Source: Schaalia odontolytica | GTDB lineage: Bacteria > Actinomycetota > Actinomycetes > Actinomycetales > Actinomycetaceae | DNA length: 32,000 nucleotides | Assembly (NCBI RefSeq): GCF_005696695.1 | Contig: NZ_CP040006.1 | Coordinates: forward strand, 2,220,001-2,252,000 | Direction of reading: 5' to 3' | Part shown: positions 3,650-20,746 of the stretch, piece after piece | Position numbering within the stretch: position 1 is the first letter of the stretch | Layout: each line of letters begins with the position of its first letter | Made by a program: the position numbers and the translations under genes | The notes under the pieces: generated by a model | The model's database searches: none | Told to the model about the DNA's origin: nothing | Seen by the model: only the letters and a program-made list of their open reading frames with translations

Positions 3650-3810
3650 GAATATGCGCGTCAACCCCTTGATACGCACGTAAACCTCTAGATGTGCGCG
3701 TGGGCGGCGCTGCCCACGCGCACATCATCGGGTTAACGTGCGAGTTGTCGCACCCACGCGCATGTCATCGGGTTCACGTGCACATTAGCGGGTCCACGTG
3801 CGCGGCGAGG
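3650..3810. repeat. Array of about eight 20-bp-phased boxes with core CACG(C/T)GC(A/G)C; the left three are inverted relative to the right five
   Basis: Direct units GAATATGCGCGT (3650), GATACGCACGT (3671) and GATGTGCGCGT (3691) are followed by CCCACGCGCAcaTCATCGGGTTaACGTGC (3713-3741) and CCCACGCGCAtgTCATCGGGTTcACGTGC (3753-3781). A partial unit CGGGTCCACGTGCGC (from about 3789) ends the array. A 15-bp-arm palindrome GATGTGCGCGTGGGC-N6-GCCCACGCGCACATC lies at 3691-3726. Confidence 0.65.
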
Positions 3811-3860
3811 AGCGCAGGCAGCTAGCACGCCTCGGCACACGGAACGCGACAGCACAAACT

Positions 3861-3892
3861 CGAAGGGGCCGGCCATAAGGCCGACCCCTTCG
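3861..3892 (-). terminator. Probable terminator hairpin downstream of the tad operon
   Basis: CGAAGGGGCCGGCC-ATAA-GGCCGACCCCTTCG forms a 14-bp stem with one mismatch. On the minus strand it is followed by AGTTTGTGCT. It lies about 150 nt beyond the last tad gene stop (4042). Confidence 0.5.
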
Positions 3893-4041
3893 AGTATCCC
3901 ATCAACACAGTGCAAGTCTTCCGATGCGCTCCCTTTCTTGGCTCACCCTTTGTGGGTGTCGCCCTTGGCTTGATGACTATTAATGTACGGACCCCACCTG
4001 TGGGAACCATTGAACGAACCTGGCAATTTCCTGAGAATTTT

Positions 4042-4473
4042 TCACCGCTCGGGTCCGGCGCGAGCCCGGGCGCTCACATTCGTTGAAATACCGGCGATTC
4101 TGACTGGCTGTGTGAGGACCACCAGGCAGTCGAGATCGCGCACCTCGCAGGACTGGACGCCCACGCCGTTCGCCGCAGCGACGGCGGAGGCCGCCCCGCA
4201 TGGCCGCTCCCCCACGTCCTCCCAGTCAGCGGTTGCAGACTGTTCTGCCCCCGCCAGGGCCGCCAGGTCGGCGATGGCCTGCAGGTGCACCCGCTCACGG
4301 AGGGCGACACCAACCCCACCGAGGACAACCGCGAGCGCCAGGGCCAGGACAATGAGCCCCACGGAATTGATGGTCCCCGATCCTTCGTCATCGGAACGGT
4401 CGCCGGCACGCCCATACGCGACAGGCTCACCTCGGTACACAGCAGCACCCCTACCTGGCGCTCGCGGCGTCAC
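4042..4473 (-). CDS. TadE/TadG-like pilus-assembly protein (Rv3654c-like)
   Basis: It has an N-terminal hydrophobic segment, SGTINSVGLIVLALALAVVLGGVGV, followed by AIADLAALAGAEQ, which is typical of actinobacterial TadE-like proteins. GTG 4473 overlaps the upstream stop in a GTGA (4470-4473). The extension in the track to 4575 is Arg-rich and unlikely. Confidence 0.7.
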   Translation of the reverse strand: MTPRAPGRGAAVYRGEPVAYGRAGDRSDDEGSGTINSVGLIVLALALAVVLGGVGVALRERVHLQAIADLAALAGAEQSATADWEDVGERPCGAASAVAAANGVGVQSCEVRDLDCLVVLTQPVRIAGISTNVSARARAGPER

Positions 4474-4808
4474 GGCAGGTCCCCCTCGTCGATGGTGGTC
4501 ACCGAGCATCGGGCGACGCCCCCGACCCAGCCGGCCGCCCCACGGTAGGGGGCGGTGCCGGTGACGCTCACCCACCCACCGCTACGCGACACCGCGTATG
4601 ATCCGGGCGGGTAGGCGGCCGAGGCAGCTCCCTGCGGGTCGGTCTGCCCGATGGAGGCGGCCCGCGCGCCCTCGCGCACAGCCTGGCACAGGGAGGCTCC
4701 GGTCATCCCGGCCTGCGCGGCGGTGACGATGACGCCGACGACGAGGGTGACGGCAACGAACCCGATGGCGTGTTCGACGGTGACGTATCCGCGCTCGTCA
4801 CTGTTCAT
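4470..4808 (-). CDS. TadE-like pseudopilin (Rv3655c-like)
   Basis: The product MNSDERGYVTVEHAIGFVAVTLVVGVIVTAAQAG carries the TadE signature (E at +5 of the hydrophobic helix). ATG 4808 lies in an ATGA overlap with the flp-like stop (4805-4808). Confidence 0.75.
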   Translation of the reverse strand: MNSDERGYVTVEHAIGFVAVTLVVGVIVTAAQAGMTGASLCQAVREGARAASIGQTDPQGAASAAYPPGSYAVSRSGGWVSVTGTAPYRGAAGWVGGVARCSVTTIDEGDLP

Positions 4809-5077
4809 CGGGTGTTGAGCGCCTCCTGAATGATGGATTCGAGGGCGGCGCGCACGGTGTCCGATTTGAGGATCACGATGAGCAGGCCCGCGAATCCGGC
4901 GGCGGCAATGGTGCCGATCGCGTACTCGACGGTGGTCGCGCCCTCCTCGGGGTCGCACCCATCGGTGGGCTCGGCCGTGGTCCGGGGGCGCAGGGCCCGA
5001 GCTCCCTCCTGTACGGCCGCGATCGCGATGAGCTGGGCGCGCGTAGCGGCGCTGTCGATTCTGTCGATGATCGTCAT
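4805..5077 (-). CDS. flp: Flp-like pilin (DUF4244 / Rv3656c-like), 90 aa
   Basis: The C-terminal half, EEGATTVEYAIGTIAAAGFAGLLIVILKSD, matches the actinobacterial Flp/DUF4244 pattern. ATG 5077 has AAAGGA 7 nt upstream. The longer track ORF (to 5302) would run through the regulatory gap. Confidence 0.75.
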   Translation of the reverse strand: MTIIDRIDSAATRAQLIAIAAVQEGARALRPRTTAEPTDGCDPEEGATTVEYAIGTIAAAGFAGLLIVILKSDTVRAALESIIQEALNTR

Positions 5078-5162
5078 TGATCTGTCCTTTCTTCCGTTGC
5101 GCGCGGTCGCGCGCAGGGCCAGTGTGCGCGAGGGCCATCCCACGTTTCCAGGCGGATTCGAA

Positions 5163-5207
5163 CCCCTGTGGATAACCAACGAGGCCCCGCGACCCCTGTG
5201 GATAACC
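5163..5207 (-). promoter_or_regulatory. Pair of CCCCTGTGGATAACC boxes (gene-sense GGTTATCCACAGGGG), 30 bp apart, upstream of flp
   Basis: Identical 15-mers lie at 5163-5177 and 5193-5207, in the 133-nt gap between the tadB/C stop (5211) and the flp ATG (5077). The core TTATCCACA equals the DnaA-box consensus. Confidence 0.5.
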
Positions 5208-5210
5208 CGC

Positions 5211-6458
5211 CTACACACCGATTCCTCCGACGAGATGCGCGAGCAGGGGTGCGATGCCCAGGGCCAGGAAGGCTGGCAGGAAGAAGGTGCCGAGCGGACC
5301 AACGAGGCGGACGCTCAGCTCCTCGGCCTGTGCCTTCGCGTCGACGAGGCGGGAGCGGCGCTCCCACGCGGCACTGCGGGCGAGCAGCGTTTCTGGGGCG
5401 GTTCCACTGGTCCACGAGGCCTCGAGGGCGTCGCGCAGGGGATGGCTCCACTCGGGCGCATCCTCCCAGGCGTCCGCCCAGGTCGCCCCGAGCCGCAGCG
5501 AGGCGGCGGCCCACGACAGTGCCTCGTCGACGCAGGCGTCGGCAAGGGCTTCCAGTGCGCGGGGGATCGCTGCACCGCACGCCAGGGCGGAGGCGACGAG
5601 GTCGCAGGCGAGCGCGCCGTCTATCCCCTCCTCGACGCGCCTGCACCGGGCAAGGATCCGTCGACACGAGGCGACCCCCGCCGCCCACGCGGACACACCC
5701 ACGAGGGCGCACACCCGTCCCACCCCACCTCCCGTGTAGAACTGCCAGGGCGATGCCCCGAGCGCGAGCGCACACGCGATCCCCACGAGGGGAAGGGCCG
5801 CGAGGACACGCGCGGACATGAGCGGGCCGGCGGCGGCAACGCGACGAGCCTCCTCGAGCGCCTGCGCGTCGTCTATCGCGCTGCCGATCGCATCGAGCAC
5901 ATCGGCGAGGGGCGCGCCGAGGTCGTGGCTGAATCGGCAGGCGAGGGCGACGGATGCAGCGCTCGCACGGGATGCGGCCGCGCCCGGCACCCTTTCTGCT
6001 CTGCGCAGGGAGCGCCAGCGCGTCGGCGCGCGCGCCCACTCGTCGAGGACCGCGGGGTAGGAATAATCCACGCCGACGCTCCCTCCCGCACCGATGCGCG
6101 CCAACGCGAGGCCCCAGGCAAGGGAGGTGGGGGCTCCCGCGCGCAGGCGGGTCGCGACCTCGGCAACGAGGAGGGAGAGCTCGCGCGGGGTGGGCGGGCC
6201 CTGTGCGCGGCCGCGATGACGCGCGGATCTTTCCGCCCCGGGGAATAGCCGACCCCACCGCCCCCGGGCCTCGCGCCTTGGGCTACACACACGCGTCGGC
6301 CGCGCCCACGCGCGCGCGATGCGCCTCTCGCGCGCTCCCCGATACACCACGACACAACACTGACAACACAACGCAACCACGCATATAACGAACACGCTGA
6401 CCGCCGCCACCTCACCAAGGCCGAGGCAGTCCACAAACGCATCCCAGCCCGCCCTCAT
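5211..6458 (-). CDS. Fused TadB/TadC-like (GspF family) inner-membrane platform protein
   Basis: A single 415-codon frame has TadB-like (VLAALPLVGIACALALGASPW) and TadC-like (DLVASALACGAAIPRALEALADA...VGPLGTFFLPAFLALGIAPLL) halves. ATG 6458 lies in an ATGA overlap with the tadA stop. Confidence 0.8.
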   Translation of the reverse strand: MRAGWDAFVDCLGLGEVAAVSVFVICVVALCCQCCVVVYRGARERRIARAWARPTRVCSPRREARGRWGRLFPGAERSARHRGRAQGPPTPRELSLLVAEVATRLRAGAPTSLAWGLALARIGAGGSVGVDYSYPAVLDEWARAPTRWRSLRRAERVPGAAASRASAASVALACRFSHDLGAPLADVLDAIGSAIDDAQALEEARRVAAAGPLMSARVLAALPLVGIACALALGASPWQFYTGGGVGRVCALVGVSAWAAGVASCRRILARCRRVEEGIDGALACDLVASALACGAAIPRALEALADACVDEALSWAAASLRLGATWADAWEDAPEWSHPLRDALEASWTSGTAPETLLARSAAWERRSRLVDAKAQAEELSVRLVGPLGTFFLPAFLALGIAPLLAHLVGGIGV

Positions 6459-7567
6459 AGCCCGACCCGTCGGGCGAGGGAGGACCAGGCCTCGTGCGTG
6501 GTGACGCAGCCATCGGCGGTGGCACTGAGAGCGAGCGCGCACTCGAGTGACCCGCGGGCGCGCGTAAGGACCCCGACCTCGGACACCCAGCGGTGCCCGG
6601 AGGGGGCTCGGCGCAGGTGGAGGACGGCGTCGATGGCGCTGGCGGCCTGGGCGGCGACCGCACTTTCGCTCATCCCGGCGAGCGCTCCAAGGGCAGCGAG
6701 CCGTGCGGGCACGTCACGCGCCCCATTGGCGTGGATCGTCGCCCATCCTCCGTCATGCCCGGTGTTGAGAGCGGTGAGGACGTCGCGCACTTCGGGGCCT
6801 CGACACTCGCCGAGGATGAGGCGGTCGGGGCGCATGCGCATGGCCGCGCACACGAGGTCGGCGAGGGTGACCGCGCCCCTCCCCTCGACATTGGGTGCGC
6901 GCTCGATGAGGTGCACGCAGTGCGGGTGCGCGGGCGCGATTTCGGCGACCTCTTCGACGCAGACGATCCGCTCACCAACGGGGACAAGGGCAAGCGCGGC
7001 GCTCAGGAGCGTCGTTTTTCCGCTTCCTGTCGCCCCACTGACGAGGACGTTGGCGCGCGAGGCGACAAGGGCCCGCAGGAGCGTCCCCACCTCGCCGGGC
7101 AAAGTCCCACAGGCCTCGAGATCCGCAATGCCCAGCCGACGGGTGCCGAGGACGCGCAGAGAGATGAGTGTGCCGGATCCCGACACGGGGGCGAGGACCG
7201 CGTGGAGGCGCACGCCCCCGGGCAGGGTGCCGTCCGCGATGGGGCGCGCATCGTCGAGGCGCACGCCGCACGCGCTCGCGAGGCGGATGGCGGCGCGGCG
7301 GGCGTCCGCATCGTCTCGGATCCCTGCGTCCACGCGCACGAGGCCGCCCCCTCGGTCGACCCACGCCTGGGGACCGTTGATGAGGACGTCGGTGACGGCT
7401 GGGTCGTCGAGGAGGCGCGCGAGGGGCGGGTCCATGCCGCGTTGCCGGGCGCGTAGGGACTCCAGGGTGGAGGTGACCGCGGCGGCTCCGCAGCCGGGCG
7501 GAGCGCACGCGGCGGCCGCACGAGCGGGGTCCTCACCGTGGGCGAGCAGGCGCAGCGCGTCACGCAT
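6455..7567 (-). CDS. tadA: TadA/CpaF-family secretion ATPase
   Basis: It carries Walker A (VSGATGSGKTTLL), Walker B / Asp box (PDRLILGECRG) and a His box (TGHDGGWATIHAN). ATG 7567 overlaps the upstream gene end (7560) by 8 nt. Confidence 0.9.
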   Translation of the reverse strand: MRDALRLLAHGEDPARAAAACAPPGCGAAAVTSTLESLRARQRGMDPPLARLLDDPAVTDVLINGPQAWVDRGGGLVRVDAGIRDDADARRAAIRLASACGVRLDDARPIADGTLPGGVRLHAVLAPVSGSGTLISLRVLGTRRLGIADLEACGTLPGEVGTLLRALVASRANVLVSGATGSGKTTLLSAALALVPVGERIVCVEEVAEIAPAHPHCVHLIERAPNVEGRGAVTLADLVCAAMRMRPDRLILGECRGPEVRDVLTALNTGHDGGWATIHANGARDVPARLAALGALAGMSESAVAAQAASAIDAVLHLRRAPSGHRWVSEVGVLTRARGSLECALALSATADGCVTTHEAWSSLARRVGL

Positions 7568-8573
7568 GACGTGCCTCGATCGCGAGGAACTCACCCGGTG
7601 ACGACGCGGCCCCACCTCCATGCGCGGAGGAGGCGGATCCGAGGGCGCGCATCAGCGCGCGCAGGTCCCGCCCGGGGCGCGTTGGGGCGCGCAGGATGGG
7701 CCCGGGGGCGCACGCGCGCAGACCGGCTCCCCAACGCTCGCCAGCACTCACGAGCGTGATCGCGGGACATGGAGGGGGAACCGCCGCGCATGTCGCCGAC
7801 AGAGCGGCGGCTCCCTCCAGGTCCCCGTGAGTCACGACGATAAGCGCGTCGGCGTGGATCGCGGACACGCATCGGGCGGCTCGCTCGTCCCATCGGCCTG
7901 CGTCCACGATGAGGGGCGCGTCGAGGGATCGGCACGCCGCGACCACGCGGGGATCGTCGGCGGCGGCACCGCCTCGGGAGTCCCCGACGAGGGCCCGCAC
8001 GTCCCCAACGACGGGCAGGTACTCGCGTAGTGAGGGCAGATACGAGTCTTCGGAGGCGTCGAGATCCGCCCAGCGCACGCCGGGCACATCATGGTCAGCC
8101 GCGAGCGCGACACCGGGCACGGACCCGGACGCGTCGACAACAACCGCCTCGCCCGACCCCGCTCGGCGGACACCGCGCTCCCCGCGCCGCACACTCCCTC
8201 GGACACCCCGACGACGCCCGCACTCACGTGCCAGCAGCCGCACAATGCCGGTGACCCCAACCCCTCCGGCGATCCCGGCGACCACCCACACCGCACCCGA
8301 GCGGCGAGTTTGCGCACAGGCCTCGGCGATGAGGGACACGAGGAGCGCGCTATCCCCCGGCAGCCTCACCTGACCGCCCTGCCCGACGCGCACGCAGGGC
8401 GCTCCCTCGGGCACGGGAGCCGACGGGGAGGCCAGGATCAACGAGGCCTGGCCCGGGTTCGAGCACACGCGCGCCCCCGCGAGCACCGCGGCATCGCGCG
8501 CACCATCGAGGTCGGGCGGGGCGAAGCCGACGAGGGCGACGGTTCCTCGAGGTGGGGTGACGTGGGCGTTCAT
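7560..8573 (-). CDS. TadZ/CpaE-like, Ssd-like (Rv3660c-type) protein
   Basis: It sits directly upstream of tadA. A degenerate P-loop-like region is present (VWVVAGIAGGVGVTGIV). I start it at ATG 8573 (MNAHVTPPRGTVALVGF), because the track extension to 8771 would overlap the divergent HAD gene and its promoter gap. Confidence 0.7.
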   Translation of the reverse strand: MNAHVTPPRGTVALVGFAPPDLDGARDAAVLAGARVCSNPGQASLILASPSAPVPEGAPCVRVGQGGQVRLPGDSALLVSLIAEACAQTRRSGAVWVVAGIAGGVGVTGIVRLLARECGRRRGVRGSVRRGERGVRRAGSGEAVVVDASGSVPGVALAADHDVPGVRWADLDASEDSYLPSLREYLPVVGDVRALVGDSRGGAAADDPRVVAACRSLDAPLIVDAGRWDERAARCVSAIHADALIVVTHGDLEGAAALSATCAAVPPPCPAITLVSAGERWGAGLRACAPGPILRAPTRPGRDLRALMRALGSASSAHGGGAASSPGEFLAIEARHA

Positions 8574-8621
8574 GGGACGACGATGCGCCCGCACCGATTG
8601 TCTCGTCCACCCGCGTGCGCG

Positions 8622-8698
8622 CCCCTGTGGACAACGCCAACCCGAGGTGCGAGGCTGTGCATAGAGGGGTCCGATGGAGGACCCCTGTGGATTGATCC
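8622..8698 (-). promoter_or_regulatory. Pair of CCCCTGTGGA(C/T)... boxes 60 bp apart in the tadZ / HAD divergent gap
   Basis: CCCCTGTGGACAAC lies at 8622-8635 (gene-sense GTTGTCCACAGGGG) and CCCCTGTGGATTGATCC at 8682-8698. A hairpin GGGGTCC-N6-GGACCCC at 8666-8685 overlaps the second box. Confidence 0.45.
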
Positions 8699-8716: not shown

Positions 8717-9487
8717 ATGGTACGCGCGGCCTTTTTCGACCTGGATAAGACGATTCTGGACACGTCCTCAAACGTGGCGCTCTCGGGTCCGTTCATCGAG
8801 GCCGGCCTCATGAACCGTCGGACCGCGCTCACCTCCGTCCTGGTTCAACTGCCCTACCTGCTCGCGGGCGCGGACGAGTCCCGCATGGAGCAGATGGCGC
8901 AGGCCCTGGGGCGCATGGGGCGAGGCTGGAACGCCGCTTTCCTCGAGGCAACGGTGGAGGACGCGCTCGAGCGCACGATCCAGCCAGTCTGCTACGCGCA
9001 GGCCCTCGCGCGCATCGAGCAGCACAAGCGCGCGGGAGACGTCGTCGTCATCGCGTCGGCATCGGTCGAGCAGGTGGTACGTCCCATCGCGAAGATGCTG
9101 GGGGCTGACGAGGTTCTCGCCTCGCGCGCGGCGGTCGACGAGGACGGGTGTTTCACGGGCGAGATCACGCACTTCAACCAGGCTCAGGGAAAGGCGGATG
9201 CCTGCGAGGCCCTGGCTCGCGCGCGCGGCTGGGACCTGTCGGAATGTTCGGCGTACTCGGATTCGGTGTCGGACGCACCGCTCCTGCGCCTCGTCGGCCA
9301 CCCCTACGCGGTCAACCCGGACCGCGGCCTGCGCGAGATGGCGCAGCGCGAAGGCTGGCCCACCCTCACGTTCACGTCCACGGTGCGCGTCCTGCCGCGC
9401 GAGGTTCCCACGCCCGCGAAGGTCGCGGTGCCTTTCATCGCCGGCGTCGCCGTGGGCGCGGCGGCCTGCGCGCTCCTGCGCCGCTGA
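8717..9487 (+). CDS. HAD-IB family hydrolase (SerB-like, Rv3661-like) with a C-terminal TM segment
   Basis: HAD motifs are present: FFDLDKT (motif I), IASAS (motif II) and YSDSVSDAPLL (motif IV). GGAG lies 8 nt upstream of the ATG. The gene is divergent from tadZ, as I recall for mycobacteria. Confidence 0.85.
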   Translation: MVRAAFFDLDKTILDTSSNVALSGPFIEAGLMNRRTALTSVLVQLPYLLAGADESRMEQMAQALGRMGRGWNAAFLEATVEDALERTIQPVCYAQALARIEQHKRAGDVVVIASASVEQVVRPIAKMLGADEVLASRAAVDEDGCFTGEITHFNQAQGKADACEALARARGWDLSECSAYSDSVSDAPLLRLVGHPYAVNPDRGLREMAQREGWPTLTFTSTVRVLPREVPTPAKVAVPFIAGVAVGAAACALLRR

Positions 9488-14204: not shown

Positions 14205-14888
14205 ATGATCGGTGACGGAAACTTCATCAGCCAGGTGCCGCTGTTCGGTGGCCTTGATGATGCACAGCAGGTGTCCCTCCAGCAGAAGATGGGTCACACG
14301 ACCCTGCGTCGCGGAGAGACTCTCTTCGACGAAGGCGATCTCGGCGATCGCCTGTACATCGTGACCGAGGGCAAGGTGAAGCTCGGCCACACGTCCAGCG
14401 ACGGCCGCGAGTCTCTGCTCGCAGTCCTGGGCCCCGGAGAGATCATCGGTGAGCTCACGCTCTTCGATCCGGGTCCGCGCTCAACCACCGCAACCGCCGT
14501 TTCCCCGGCGTCCCTCCTCTACCTCGAGCACGAGGATCTCATGCACGTGCTCGACACCAACCCGACCCTGGCCAAGCACATGCTGCGCGCCCTCGCGCAG
14601 CGCCTGCGCCGCACCAACGAGTCCCTCTCGGATCTCGTGTTCTCCGACGTTCCCGGCCGCGTCGCCAAGGCCCTCCTGGACCTTGCAGATCGCTTCGGCA
14701 CCGCGACCGACAAGGGCGTCCACGTCCCCCACGACCTCACGCAGGAAGAGCTCGCCCAGCTGGTCGGCGCCTCCCGTGAGACCGTGAACAAGTCTCTGGC
14801 CGACTTCGTGTCGCGCGGCTGGATCCGTCTGGAAGGTCGCGCCGTGACCCTCCTCGACGTTGATCGCCTGGCGCGTCGCGCTCGCTGA
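14205..14888 (+). CDS. crp: Crp/Fnr-family cAMP receptor protein (Crp/GlxR orthologue)
   Basis: The cNMP domain reads RGETLFDEGDLGDRLYIVTEGKVKL...GELTLFDPGPRSTTATA. The HTH region RETVNKSLADFVSRGWIRLEGRAVTLLDVDRLARRAR is close to mycobacterial Crp as I recall it. GGAAGGAG lies upstream of the ATG. Confidence 0.95.
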   Translation: MIGDGNFISQVPLFGGLDDAQQVSLQQKMGHTTLRRGETLFDEGDLGDRLYIVTEGKVKLGHTSSDGRESLLAVLGPGEIIGELTLFDPGPRSTTATAVSPASLLYLEHEDLMHVLDTNPTLAKHMLRALAQRLRRTNESLSDLVFSDVPGRVAKALLDLADRFGTATDKGVHVPHDLTQEELAQLVGASRETVNKSLADFVSRGWIRLEGRAVTLLDVDRLARRAR

Positions 14889-18967: not shown

Positions 18968-19041
<74 letters not shown>

Positions 19042-19047
19042 CCGGTA

Positions 19048-20666: not shown

Positions 20667-20740
<74 letters not shown>

Positions 20741-20746
20741 CCGGTA

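Follow-up and report, generated by a model that had tools for sequence, protein, structure and literature searches.

Tandem DnaA-box elements upstream of tad, flp, and W-x-G/lipase genes in Schaalia odontolytica and their counterparts in other Actinomycetota

INTRODUCTION

That DnaA can act as a transcription factor is well known from dnaA autoregulation and nrdAB in Escherichia coli, from sda and the replication-stress regulon in Bacillus subtilis, and from gcrA and ftsZ in Caulobacter. The gidAB-parAB promoter of Pseudomonas aeruginosa is likewise a DnaA-box promoter (PMC13438810). Here we describe a set of DnaA-box elements in a 32,000-nucleotide stretch of Schaalia odontolytica (contig NZ_CP040006.1, positions 2,220,001 to 2,252,000; "the window" below means this whole stretch, numbered from its first letter), where they stand in tandem upstream of the tad/flp pilus genes and of a gene pair for a W-x-G protein and a lipase-like protein. 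With the DnaA-box promoters described elsewhere they share canonical high-affinity boxes beside a promoter and, if our reading holds, a coupling of expression to replication status. They differ from these in having two or three boxes of the same orientation, set at steps of 29 to 30 bp with the proximal box ending 34 to 36 nt before the -10 hexamer, in being conserved across many orders, often before leaderless genes, and in the genes that follow, namely, tad/flp, comEA, an ssb paralog, yraN-comM, a comF-type gene, and AbiEi-like genes.

Replication origins offer another comparison. The R1/R4-type boxes of oriC and the boxes of actinobacterial origins (TTGTCCACA) resemble the window boxes in sequence, flanks included, but the window sites lie without dnaA or dnaN nearby and consist of two or three boxes that share one orientation, are regularly spaced, and are locked to a promoter.

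A cis-element of their own also marks competence regulons, as with the ComK boxes of Bacillus and the ComX cin-box of streptococci. The CRP-S element of gamma-proteobacteria (PMC1635313) resembles the present case in that one shared element precedes pilus, comEA, comF, comM/dprA-operon, and ssb genes. Unlike the CRP, ComK, and sigma-X sites, however, the element described here is a DnaA box, and the genes behind it include many that are not involved in DNA uptake. Tad pili are required for transformation in Micrococcus luteus, the only species for which natural transformation is known (PMC4322843). In the M. luteus studies (PMC4322843, PMC8467076), tad/flp genes are tied to DNA uptake, and SAF, TadZ, and comEA loci recur there as they do here. 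These studies name trans-acting genes (HTH_17, SAF, ClpXP, and others) and no promoter motif, and we found no promoter sequences or motifs printed in the M. luteus competence papers.

A further system to be compared is the RecA-NDp/PafBC promoter, which we take to be the RecA-independent DNA-damage promoter TGTCRGTG-N8-TAnnnT. It is similarly promoter linked, widespread in Actinobacteria, associated with DNA-metabolism genes, and often leaderless, but its sequence is different and lies directly upstream of the -10 hexamer, and it is absent from or unconserved in the three window promoters.

The control of natural competence and of Tad/Flp expression in Actinomycetota is little known according to a January 2026 paper (PMC12849477). 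Tad pili matter for colonization in oral Actinomyces and Schaalia. In the literature searched (open-access papers and preprints), we found no paired-box module, no actinobacterial DnaA regulon, and no cis-element for actinobacterial competence or tad; DnaA is familiar as a transcription factor, whereas the paired-box module and its actinobacterial gene set appear to have no earlier account in that literature. The present finding supplies a cis-element of precise geometry together with a named candidate regulator for competence and Tad control, and the module predicts regulon members in any actinobacterial genome.

RESULTS AND DISCUSSION

Six boxes stand apart from the rest of the window

The 32-kb window (G+C content, 66%) contains six copies of the 10-mer TCCACAGGSG, at 5163, 5193, 8622, 8682, 27579, and 27609, versus 0.20 expected by chance. 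All six copies are on the minus strand and intergenic, and none of 100 dinucleotide-preserving shuffles contained six or more, which excludes a chance origin. A weight matrix built from the six window sites themselves scored them at 20.7 to 27.2 bits, and the runner-up on either strand of the window reached 11.0 bits, a gap that makes the six boxes a discrete class. The boxes lie 86 and 116 nt upstream of the flp start codon, 49 and 109 nt upstream of that of tadZ, and 83 and 113 nt upstream of that of the W-x-G gene. An earlier note on this DNA had reported six copies in a single orientation relative to the gene, and its coordinates, distances, and gene-sense sequences agree exactly with the sequence. 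It had also found no comparable copy in any other intergenic region. The "weak variant" that it placed at 3993-4007 (GTTCCCACA) did not hold up: it lacks the T at box position 4 and is followed by no -10 hexamer at +36, and we excluded it as an operator box since no promoter features lie downstream.

Upstream of flp, the proximal (5163..5177) and distal (5193..5207) boxes both read GGTTATCCACAGGGG. At the W-x-G/lipase pair, the proximal box GGTTATCCACAGGCG spans 27579..27593 and the distal box GTCGTCCACAGGGG spans 27609..27622. At tadZ, the proximal box GTTGTCCACAGGGG (8622..8635) and the distal box CAATCCACAGGGG (8682..8694) had been taken to be 60 bp apart, as opposed to the 30 bp of the other pairs. 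The 30-bp phasing stands, but the 60-bp interval turned out to be two 30-bp steps, because an overlooked degenerate box (CTATGCACAGCCT, 8652..8664, also on the minus strand) lies halfway, exactly 30 bp from each neighbor. Its core reads CTATGCACA, and TATGCACAG is invariant across eight orthologs, mostly as TGCACAGGG. It fits the relaxed DnaA consensus TTATNCACA, in which position 5, its variable base, is free.

The boxes keep a fixed distance to a predicted core promoter

All three sites follow one plan on the minus strand, in which boxes stepped by 30 bp are separated by 12 nt from a -35-like TGGnnn, and this in turn by 18 nt from a -10 hexamer. Upstream of flp, the putative -35-like element is TGGAAA (5145..5150), 12 nt past the proximal box, with TGGA conserved in orthologs. 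The -10 hexamer CACACT (5121..5126) lies 36 nt past the proximal box, which coincides with the offset peak of the scanned loci described below, and GCGCACACTGG is nearly invariant in 11 orthologs; transcription is predicted to start at about 5114, with the ATG at 5077. At tadZ, the putative -35-like element TGGACG (8604..8609; GGAC/AGAC conserved) is again 12 nt past the proximal box and the -10 hexamer is CATCGT (8580..8585), the succession of GGCGCAnCGT, 6 variable nt, and ATG being kept in eight orthologs. Just 6 nt separate the hexamer from the tadZ ATG (8573), in line with the +46 to +48 peak of start codons across scanned loci, and a leaderless mRNA is therefore predicted. At the W-x-G/lipase pair, a putative TGGTGG (27561..27566) stands 12 nt and TAGCGT (27537..27542), invariant in four orthologs, 36 nt past the proximal box, with a predicted transcription start site near 27530 and the ATG at 27496. 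Relative to the predicted start sites, the centers of the 9-mers would lie at about -57 for the proximal boxes, at about -87 for the next ones (the distal boxes of the pairs and the middle box of tadZ), and at about -117 for the distal box of tadZ.

The flp boxes begin 3 nt past the tadC stop codon and hence point to an internal promoter. Where the earlier note counted three minus-strand operons, the tadZ and W-x-G sites stand, but flp would be served by an internal tad promoter and is not a separate operon. An E. coli-type sigma-70 scan of the window, uninformative at 66% G+C, found no promoter, and a terminator scan gave one weak call, in the flp box spacer, which is probably a false positive (one call versus 0.7 expected).

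Boxes and core promoter elements are conserved in orthologous promoters

In alignment, the promoters of flp (n = 11), tadZ (n = 8), and W-x-G (n = 4) showed invariant boxes, -35-like elements, and -10 hexamers separated by spacers that drift. In the flp distal box, TTATCCACAG is invariant in all 11 promoters, and the proximal box is kept; ATCCACA of the tadZ distal box is invariant in the eight orthologs, where the proximal box is conserved as well; and the W-x-G distal box is invariant in the four orthologs, with the proximal one conserved in the alignment. This footprint was seen both in loci selected by the motif and in tad loci picked for a motif-independent test solely by TadZ protein homology (43 to 69% identity). 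In the TadZ-selected loci, the tadZ promoter keeps three phased boxes, the middle one reading TGCACAGGG in the more distant relatives (L121 to L123; L numbers denote retrieved loci), and the flp promoter has two or three boxes 28 to 30 bp apart with CACACT 36 nt past the proximal box. L125, the most divergent of these relatives, has a pair of weaker boxes at a 29-bp step; TCCACT stands 36 nt past the pair and is separated from the ATG by 6 nt.

The box has the sequence and flanks of an origin DnaA box

The 9-mers TTATCCACA of E. coli and TTGTCCACA of Mycobacterium/Streptomyces are published high-affinity DnaA boxes (PMC4285127, Table 1). Four of the six window boxes contain the former and a fifth contains the latter, so that they belong to the high-affinity R type, and the earlier assignment of the 9-mer to the classical or actinobacterial DnaA box was right. 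The other 9-mers are TCGTCCACA and CAATCCACA, next to the core of the middle tadZ box given above. The 14-mer GTTATCCACAGGGG is identical at 13 of 14 positions to R1 of E. coli oriC (GTTATCCACAGGGC), a sequence taken from published oligonucleotides (PMC11952115).

A genuine origin is represented by L031, from Nocardiopsis: dnaA and dnaN flank about 21 boxes distributed over both strands, recF lies downstream, and the boxes read G-TT-R-TCCACA-G-G. We compared the flanks of the promoter boxes with those of 21 boxes from this one high-GC origin, taking the 3' frequencies of the promoter boxes from a scan of metagenomes whose pattern placed no constraint on the 3' flank. G at -4 was found in 64 to 71% of promoter boxes and 67% of origin boxes, T at -3 in 64 to 67% and 86%, G at +6 in 90% and 95%, and G at +7 in 50 to 75% and 67%, respectively. 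Both sets have Y at -2 and R at -1, and neither has a preference at +8 or +9. The flank profile of the promoter boxes, G-T-Y-R-TCCACA-G-G, thus matches that of genuine oriC boxes and of E. coli R1. The earlier note had set the 3' extension apart from the DnaA box, which does not apply to the G residues at +6 and +7, since these are also present in L031 and E. coli R1, but does apply to the last two bases of GGGG, which are lineage specific: the strict GGGG tail is confined to the Actinomycetaceae lineage.

The window sites themselves were considered as an origin or as a datA or DARS cluster and rejected, having two or three boxes in one orientation and tad, HAD, and purB as neighbors. L068, L102, and L039 were also rejected as origins and represent box clusters outside oriC. 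In L068 (4918-5269) and L102 (2223-2516), from Kitasatospora and Streptomyces, five to seven boxes with G...GG flanks lie between pheA and serS, possibly a chromosomal DnaA-box cluster that serves titration or regulation. L039 (5759-5806), from a Micromonospora metagenome-assembled genome, has four tightly packed boxes of mixed orientation and no promoter association in the intergenic region where the genes for a tRNA adenosine deaminase and a deoD-type phosphorylase converge. A three-box locus recurs in human-gut metagenomes with a G+C content of 0.59 to 0.62 (L146, L149, L157, L170, L183, L187, L201, L238, and others); its boxes lack the +6 G (GTTATCCACAC...TCATCCACAC-TTATCCACAA), the locus is present twice in some contigs, at a distance of about 3.55 kb, and tblastn found no dnaA or dnaN in the retrieved stretches. 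L233 contains three direct 30-bp repeats, each made of a DnaA box and a palindrome (GTTATCCACAGGGTGACGnnnGTCACACG), and looks iteron-like.

The module occurs in many orders of Actinomycetota

One genome per species was scanned for two boxes 19 to 21 nt apart, with nothing downstream included in the pattern. This gave at least 120 matches, most of them from Actinomycetota of many orders; genera among the matches listed, to which the counts below also refer, are Streptomyces, Nonomuraea, Nocardiopsis, Kutzneria, Knoellia, Nocardioides, Aeromicrobium, Brevibacterium, Citricoccus, and Schaalia/Actinomyces/Pauljensenia, and the other matches are coding tandem repeats or box clusters. Of 90 unique high-GC loci, 57 have nAnnnT 34 to 36 nt past the proximal box, against a background of 2.2 per offset, and 39 have an ATG or GTG at +46 to +48. 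Of 55 promoter-type loci, 51 have a gap of N19 or N20 between boxes. The positioning relative to the core promoter that characterizes a DnaA-regulated promoter is hence seen at three of three window promoters and at 57 of the 90 scanned loci. A second scan, of metagenomes and with the 3' flank left free, returned the same downstream families. Judged by its sequence pattern, the box module is found in many orders of the phylum, and the window is one instance of it, not a local curiosity. A pattern-independent search for further box pairs in the retrieved genome loci found none except one coding repeat. In viral contigs, all seven matches were coding tandem repeats, indicating that the module is not a phage feature.

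DNA-uptake and single-stranded-DNA-binding genes recur behind the boxes

A Pfam census of 62 downstream genes from motif-selected loci, again among the matches listed, was headed by SSB (nine genes), DUF4244/Flp (six), and AbiEi_4 (six), followed by ComEA (SLBB plus HHH_3), FtsK/SpoIIIE, and NuoJ (three each); YraN/UPF0102, TadZ-type CbiA, DUF4192, and MTAP-type phosphorylase (two each); and a ComF-type phosphoribosyltransferase, SAF, Tag, PurD, and ThiF (one each). By eye, L059 and L091 are yraN-comM promoters. Some genomes have two targets, namely, comEA and tadZ in Aeromicrobium CF3.5, yraN and an AbiEi-like gene in Knoellia remsis, ssb and a TPR gene in Actinomyces HPA0247, and W-x-G and ssb in Pauljensenia. 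In the Actinomycetaceae, the targets among the matches listed are tad/flp, an ssb paralog, an FtsK/SpoIIIE-like gene, Tag, TPR, and W-x-G/lipase. When genera are pooled, one cis-element precedes pilus, comEA, comF, comM, and ssb genes, and the combination of pilus, comEA, comF, yraN-comM, and ssb is a classic competence-regulon signature. The central proposal of the earlier note, a shared, orientation-specific operator with a DnaA-box core that joins tad/flp to the W-x-G/lipase pair and is the site of DnaA or of some other regulator, is strongly supported by the invariant boxes, the fixed distance to the -10 hexamer, and the coherent gene set in many actinobacterial orders.

Some of these promoters have features of their own. 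The long SSB paralog of Actinomycetaceae (260 to 284 amino acids [aa]; L016, L052, L063, L082, and L084) is preceded by a set of two or, in L016, L052, and L084, three boxes with a 30-bp step, then by 12 nt, a strong -35 element TTGAAA or TTGAAG (TTGATG in L084), 18 nt, and the -10 element, an atypical TTTCCT at least in L063 and L082. In L052 (NZ_JVKM01000001.1, Xylanimonas cellulosilytica 352_XCEL), the ssb promoter and gene are near-identical to those of Schaalia sp. ORNL0103 (L016), and this assembly is probably mislabeled or contaminated. In Nonomuraea and Streptosporangium (L036, L086, and L111), paired boxes and a CAGACT -10 hexamer precede nuoJ (Oxidored_q3), a gene normally found inside the nuo operon. 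Five paired-box promoters (L043, L108, L159, L018, and L189) also carry the RecA-NDp/PafBC motif, as TGTCGGTG-N8-TAnnnT, between the proximal box and the start codon, which suggests a combined control of some genes, e.g., DUF222-HNH, by DnaA boxes and PafBC.

A model of DnaA-dependent promoter control and its alternatives

We judge the chances slightly better than even that these elements are tandem, same-orientation, high-affinity DnaA boxes that serve as upstream operators through which DnaA regulates sigma-A-type promoters. Each box would be bound by domain IV of a single DnaA monomer, and the monomers would stabilize each other via the domain I dimer, which is specific to actinomycetes and sits on a long flexible linker. 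The complex, held at a fixed upstream site, would contact RNA polymerase. Such a direct contact is suggested by the fixed distance and orientation to the core promoter. The 29- to 30-bp step places the boxes roughly on one helix face. Domain I of actinomycete DnaA forms a conserved weak head-to-head dimer, proposed as a bridge between distant boxes (PMC13270200, June 2026), and bridging of this kind would account for the pairing of the boxes. Activators typically bind just upstream of -35; DnaA would most likely activate transcription, repression being the other option. The predicted targets are the tadZ-tadA-tadBC operon, the internal flp-tadE promoter, and the W-x-G/lipase pair in the window and ssb paralogs, comEA, yraN(-comM), a comF-type gene, flp/tadZ, and AbiEi-like genes in other Actinomycetota. 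Their likely function would be a competence-like program of DNA uptake and single-stranded DNA handling that is coupled to DnaA or replication status. If so, the domain I dimer would acquire a transcriptional role, and the link between replication and competence, known in pneumococcus via gene dosage, would extend to a direct DnaA-dependent mechanism. A more far-reaching version, in which DnaA is the master regulator of a competence-like regulon in many Actinomycetota via domain-I-bridged monomers at -57/-87 and the Tad/Flp pilus is primarily a DNA-uptake organelle switched on by replication status, is tentative and seems to us more doubtful than probable.

Several observations weigh against a role of DnaA as proposed. 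It is the identity of the site sequence that suggests DnaA as the binder, and DnaA-dependent promoters with boxes spaced by 30 bp are not known to us from elsewhere. The flank profiles of the two scans were each constrained on one side by the scan pattern, and L031 is the only high-GC origin among all retrieved loci, none being from Actinomycetaceae. As for the regulon, comEA, comF, yraN, and comM are all missing from the Actinomycetaceae matches listed, and AbiEi-like, NuoJ, MTAP, and PurD genes are not DNA-uptake genes; since this holds for many box-associated genes, "competence regulon" describes only part of the picture. The GGGG tail of the Actinomycetaceae promoter boxes is absent from the L031 origin boxes, which also speaks for a dedicated actinobacterial transcription factor that reads the direct repeats, the likeness to DnaA boxes then being convergent or competitive. 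BldC and other small proteins of the excisionase/MerR-like kind occupy direct repeats in a head-to-tail arrangement, and the candidate may be a small, possibly essential HTH_17/excisionase-family protein linked to M. luteus com expression or another phylum-wide regulator. M. luteus genetics implicate an HTH_17 and a SAF protein, not DnaA, in the control of com expression, as mutations in Mlut_14660 (HTH_17) and Mlut_14650 (SAF) alter comEA/EC promoter activity and transformation (PMC8467076), and SAF, TadZ, and ComEA genes are among the box-associated genes. However, the box profile equals that of oriC boxes at every informative flank position, no extra position is conserved phylum-wide, and +8 and +9 are unconserved once the 3' flank is free; a dedicated factor would also need to bind origin boxes. 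In addition, no HTH_17 gene stands beside the box-carrying SAF loci (L070 reads FmdB-SAF-mscL), and the sole regulator gene near the window tad locus belongs to the CRP family, whose proteins bind palindromes. We regard a dedicated factor as unlikely, although it deserves serious consideration.

Other explanations account for less of the pattern. If DnaA bound the boxes for the sake of its own homeostasis, by titration or by datA/DARS-like inactivation or reactivation, and not for transcription of the neighboring genes, the non-promoter clusters of like boxes in L068 and L102 (pheA-serS) and in L039 (convergent region) would find a place, but the window boxes and most scan matches are locked in distance and orientation to the -10 hexamer and start codon and precede a functionally coherent gene set, making this quite improbable. 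OmpR-family sites are arranged in tandem at a spacing of about 10 to 11 bp, as opposed to 29 to 30 bp for the boxes here, which is one point against MtrA as the binder. This essential, conserved actinobacterial response regulator also binds oriC, recognizes direct repeats, and is conserved across the phylum, and its published site GTCACAGCG (PMC4285127) loosely resembles GTCCACAGGCG; yet GTCACAGCG differs from the box by two insertions, the conserved 5' TTR of the promoter boxes has no counterpart in it, and the promoters lack GTCACAGCG-type repeats at about one helical turn. We consider MtrA very improbable. That the boxes act in RNA, as a 5' untranslated or processing element, or represent chance or selfish repeats seems next to negligible. 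Their strict orientation relative to the gene would suit such a role, and the flp boxes, inside the tad cluster, may be transcribed by read-through from tadZ, but the tadZ boxes lie upstream of the predicted leaderless start and hence outside that mRNA. An Rfam scan of the whole window at an E value of ≤1 gave no match at the boxes, only two tRNA-Pro genes and noise, and the folding z-scores of the three upstream regions (-0.40, -2.30, and -0.24) came with no common structure, so that neither an Rfam match nor a stable conserved fold marks the boxes. Conservation is limited to boxes of 10 to 15 nt with unconserved flanks, hence there is no mobile element. Regulation by DnaA thus remains the reading that we prefer.

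Gene context and further features of the window

The tad locus predicted to be under box control (4042..8573, minus strand; Pfam and NCBIfam) has an identical gene order in L121 to L126. It comprises a tadZ/Ssd-like ATPase gene (7560-8573), tadA (6455-7621), a T2SSF-type tadB/C gene (5211-6542), the gene for a Flp-type pilin with DUF4244 and a G/ATTVEY motif (4805-5077), an unnamed small open reading frame (about 4470-4808) called as a 112-aa gene in relatives, and a TadE-like gene (4042-4575). The second putative target, the W-x-G/lipase pair (25503..27496, minus strand), has an orthologous promoter in L040, L087, and L101. Its products are the W-x-G protein of 101 aa (27191-27496) and the lipase-like protein of 564 aa (25503-27197). 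Of the gene names given in the earlier note, flp is borne out by the DUF4244 pilin, tadZ corresponds to a match below the cutoff of TIGR03815 (the actinobacterial CpaE/Ssd model), the WXG-like protein matches no family, and the lipase has only weak matches of the alpha/beta-hydrolase, lipase/thioesterase type. The tadZ boxes lie within a 143-bp divergent region common to a HAD hydrolase gene (8717-9487, plus strand), and the third box pair is flanked by purB (ATG at 27740, plus strand) and the divergent gene for the 101-aa W-x-G protein.

The ATG of the HAD gene is 23 nt from the tadZ distal box. Between the tadZ distal and middle boxes there is an inverted repeat, GGGGTCC-N6-GGACCCC (8666-8685, minus strand), which is partly conserved in relatives (GGGGTCC...GGATCCC) and accounts for the sole notable fold z-score (-2.3); another protein may bind there, or the repeat may be tied to the divergent HAD gene. 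The CRP/GlxR-family regulator gene (14205-14888, plus strand) lies about 6 kb from the tad locus, and its synteny is kept in L121 to L125 in the order CRP, hydrolase, three unnamed genes, HAD, and divergent tadZ, with a WhiB gene also nearby in L125. At the other end of the tad/flp cluster, a hairpin at 3858-3895 (minus strand; 17-bp stem, 94% complementary, 4-nt loop, followed by TTTGTGC) is probably its intrinsic terminator. Just past it, 3675-3812 is occupied by an array of units of about 20 nt with CACGTG (e.g., CACGTGAACCCGATGA...), which includes a 34-nt inverted repeat with abutting arms; a weak Rfam match to "MIR918" is noise. On the far side of purB, as seen from the W-x-G/lipase pair, 29288-31970 (minus strand) contains two DUF4853 genes in tandem together with an Abhydrolase_8 gene (PF06259), with no DnaA boxes upstream. 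Finally, two identical tRNA-Pro(CGG) genes (18968-19043 and 20667-20742, plus strand), 1.7 kb apart with short open reading frames between them, may reflect a local duplication.

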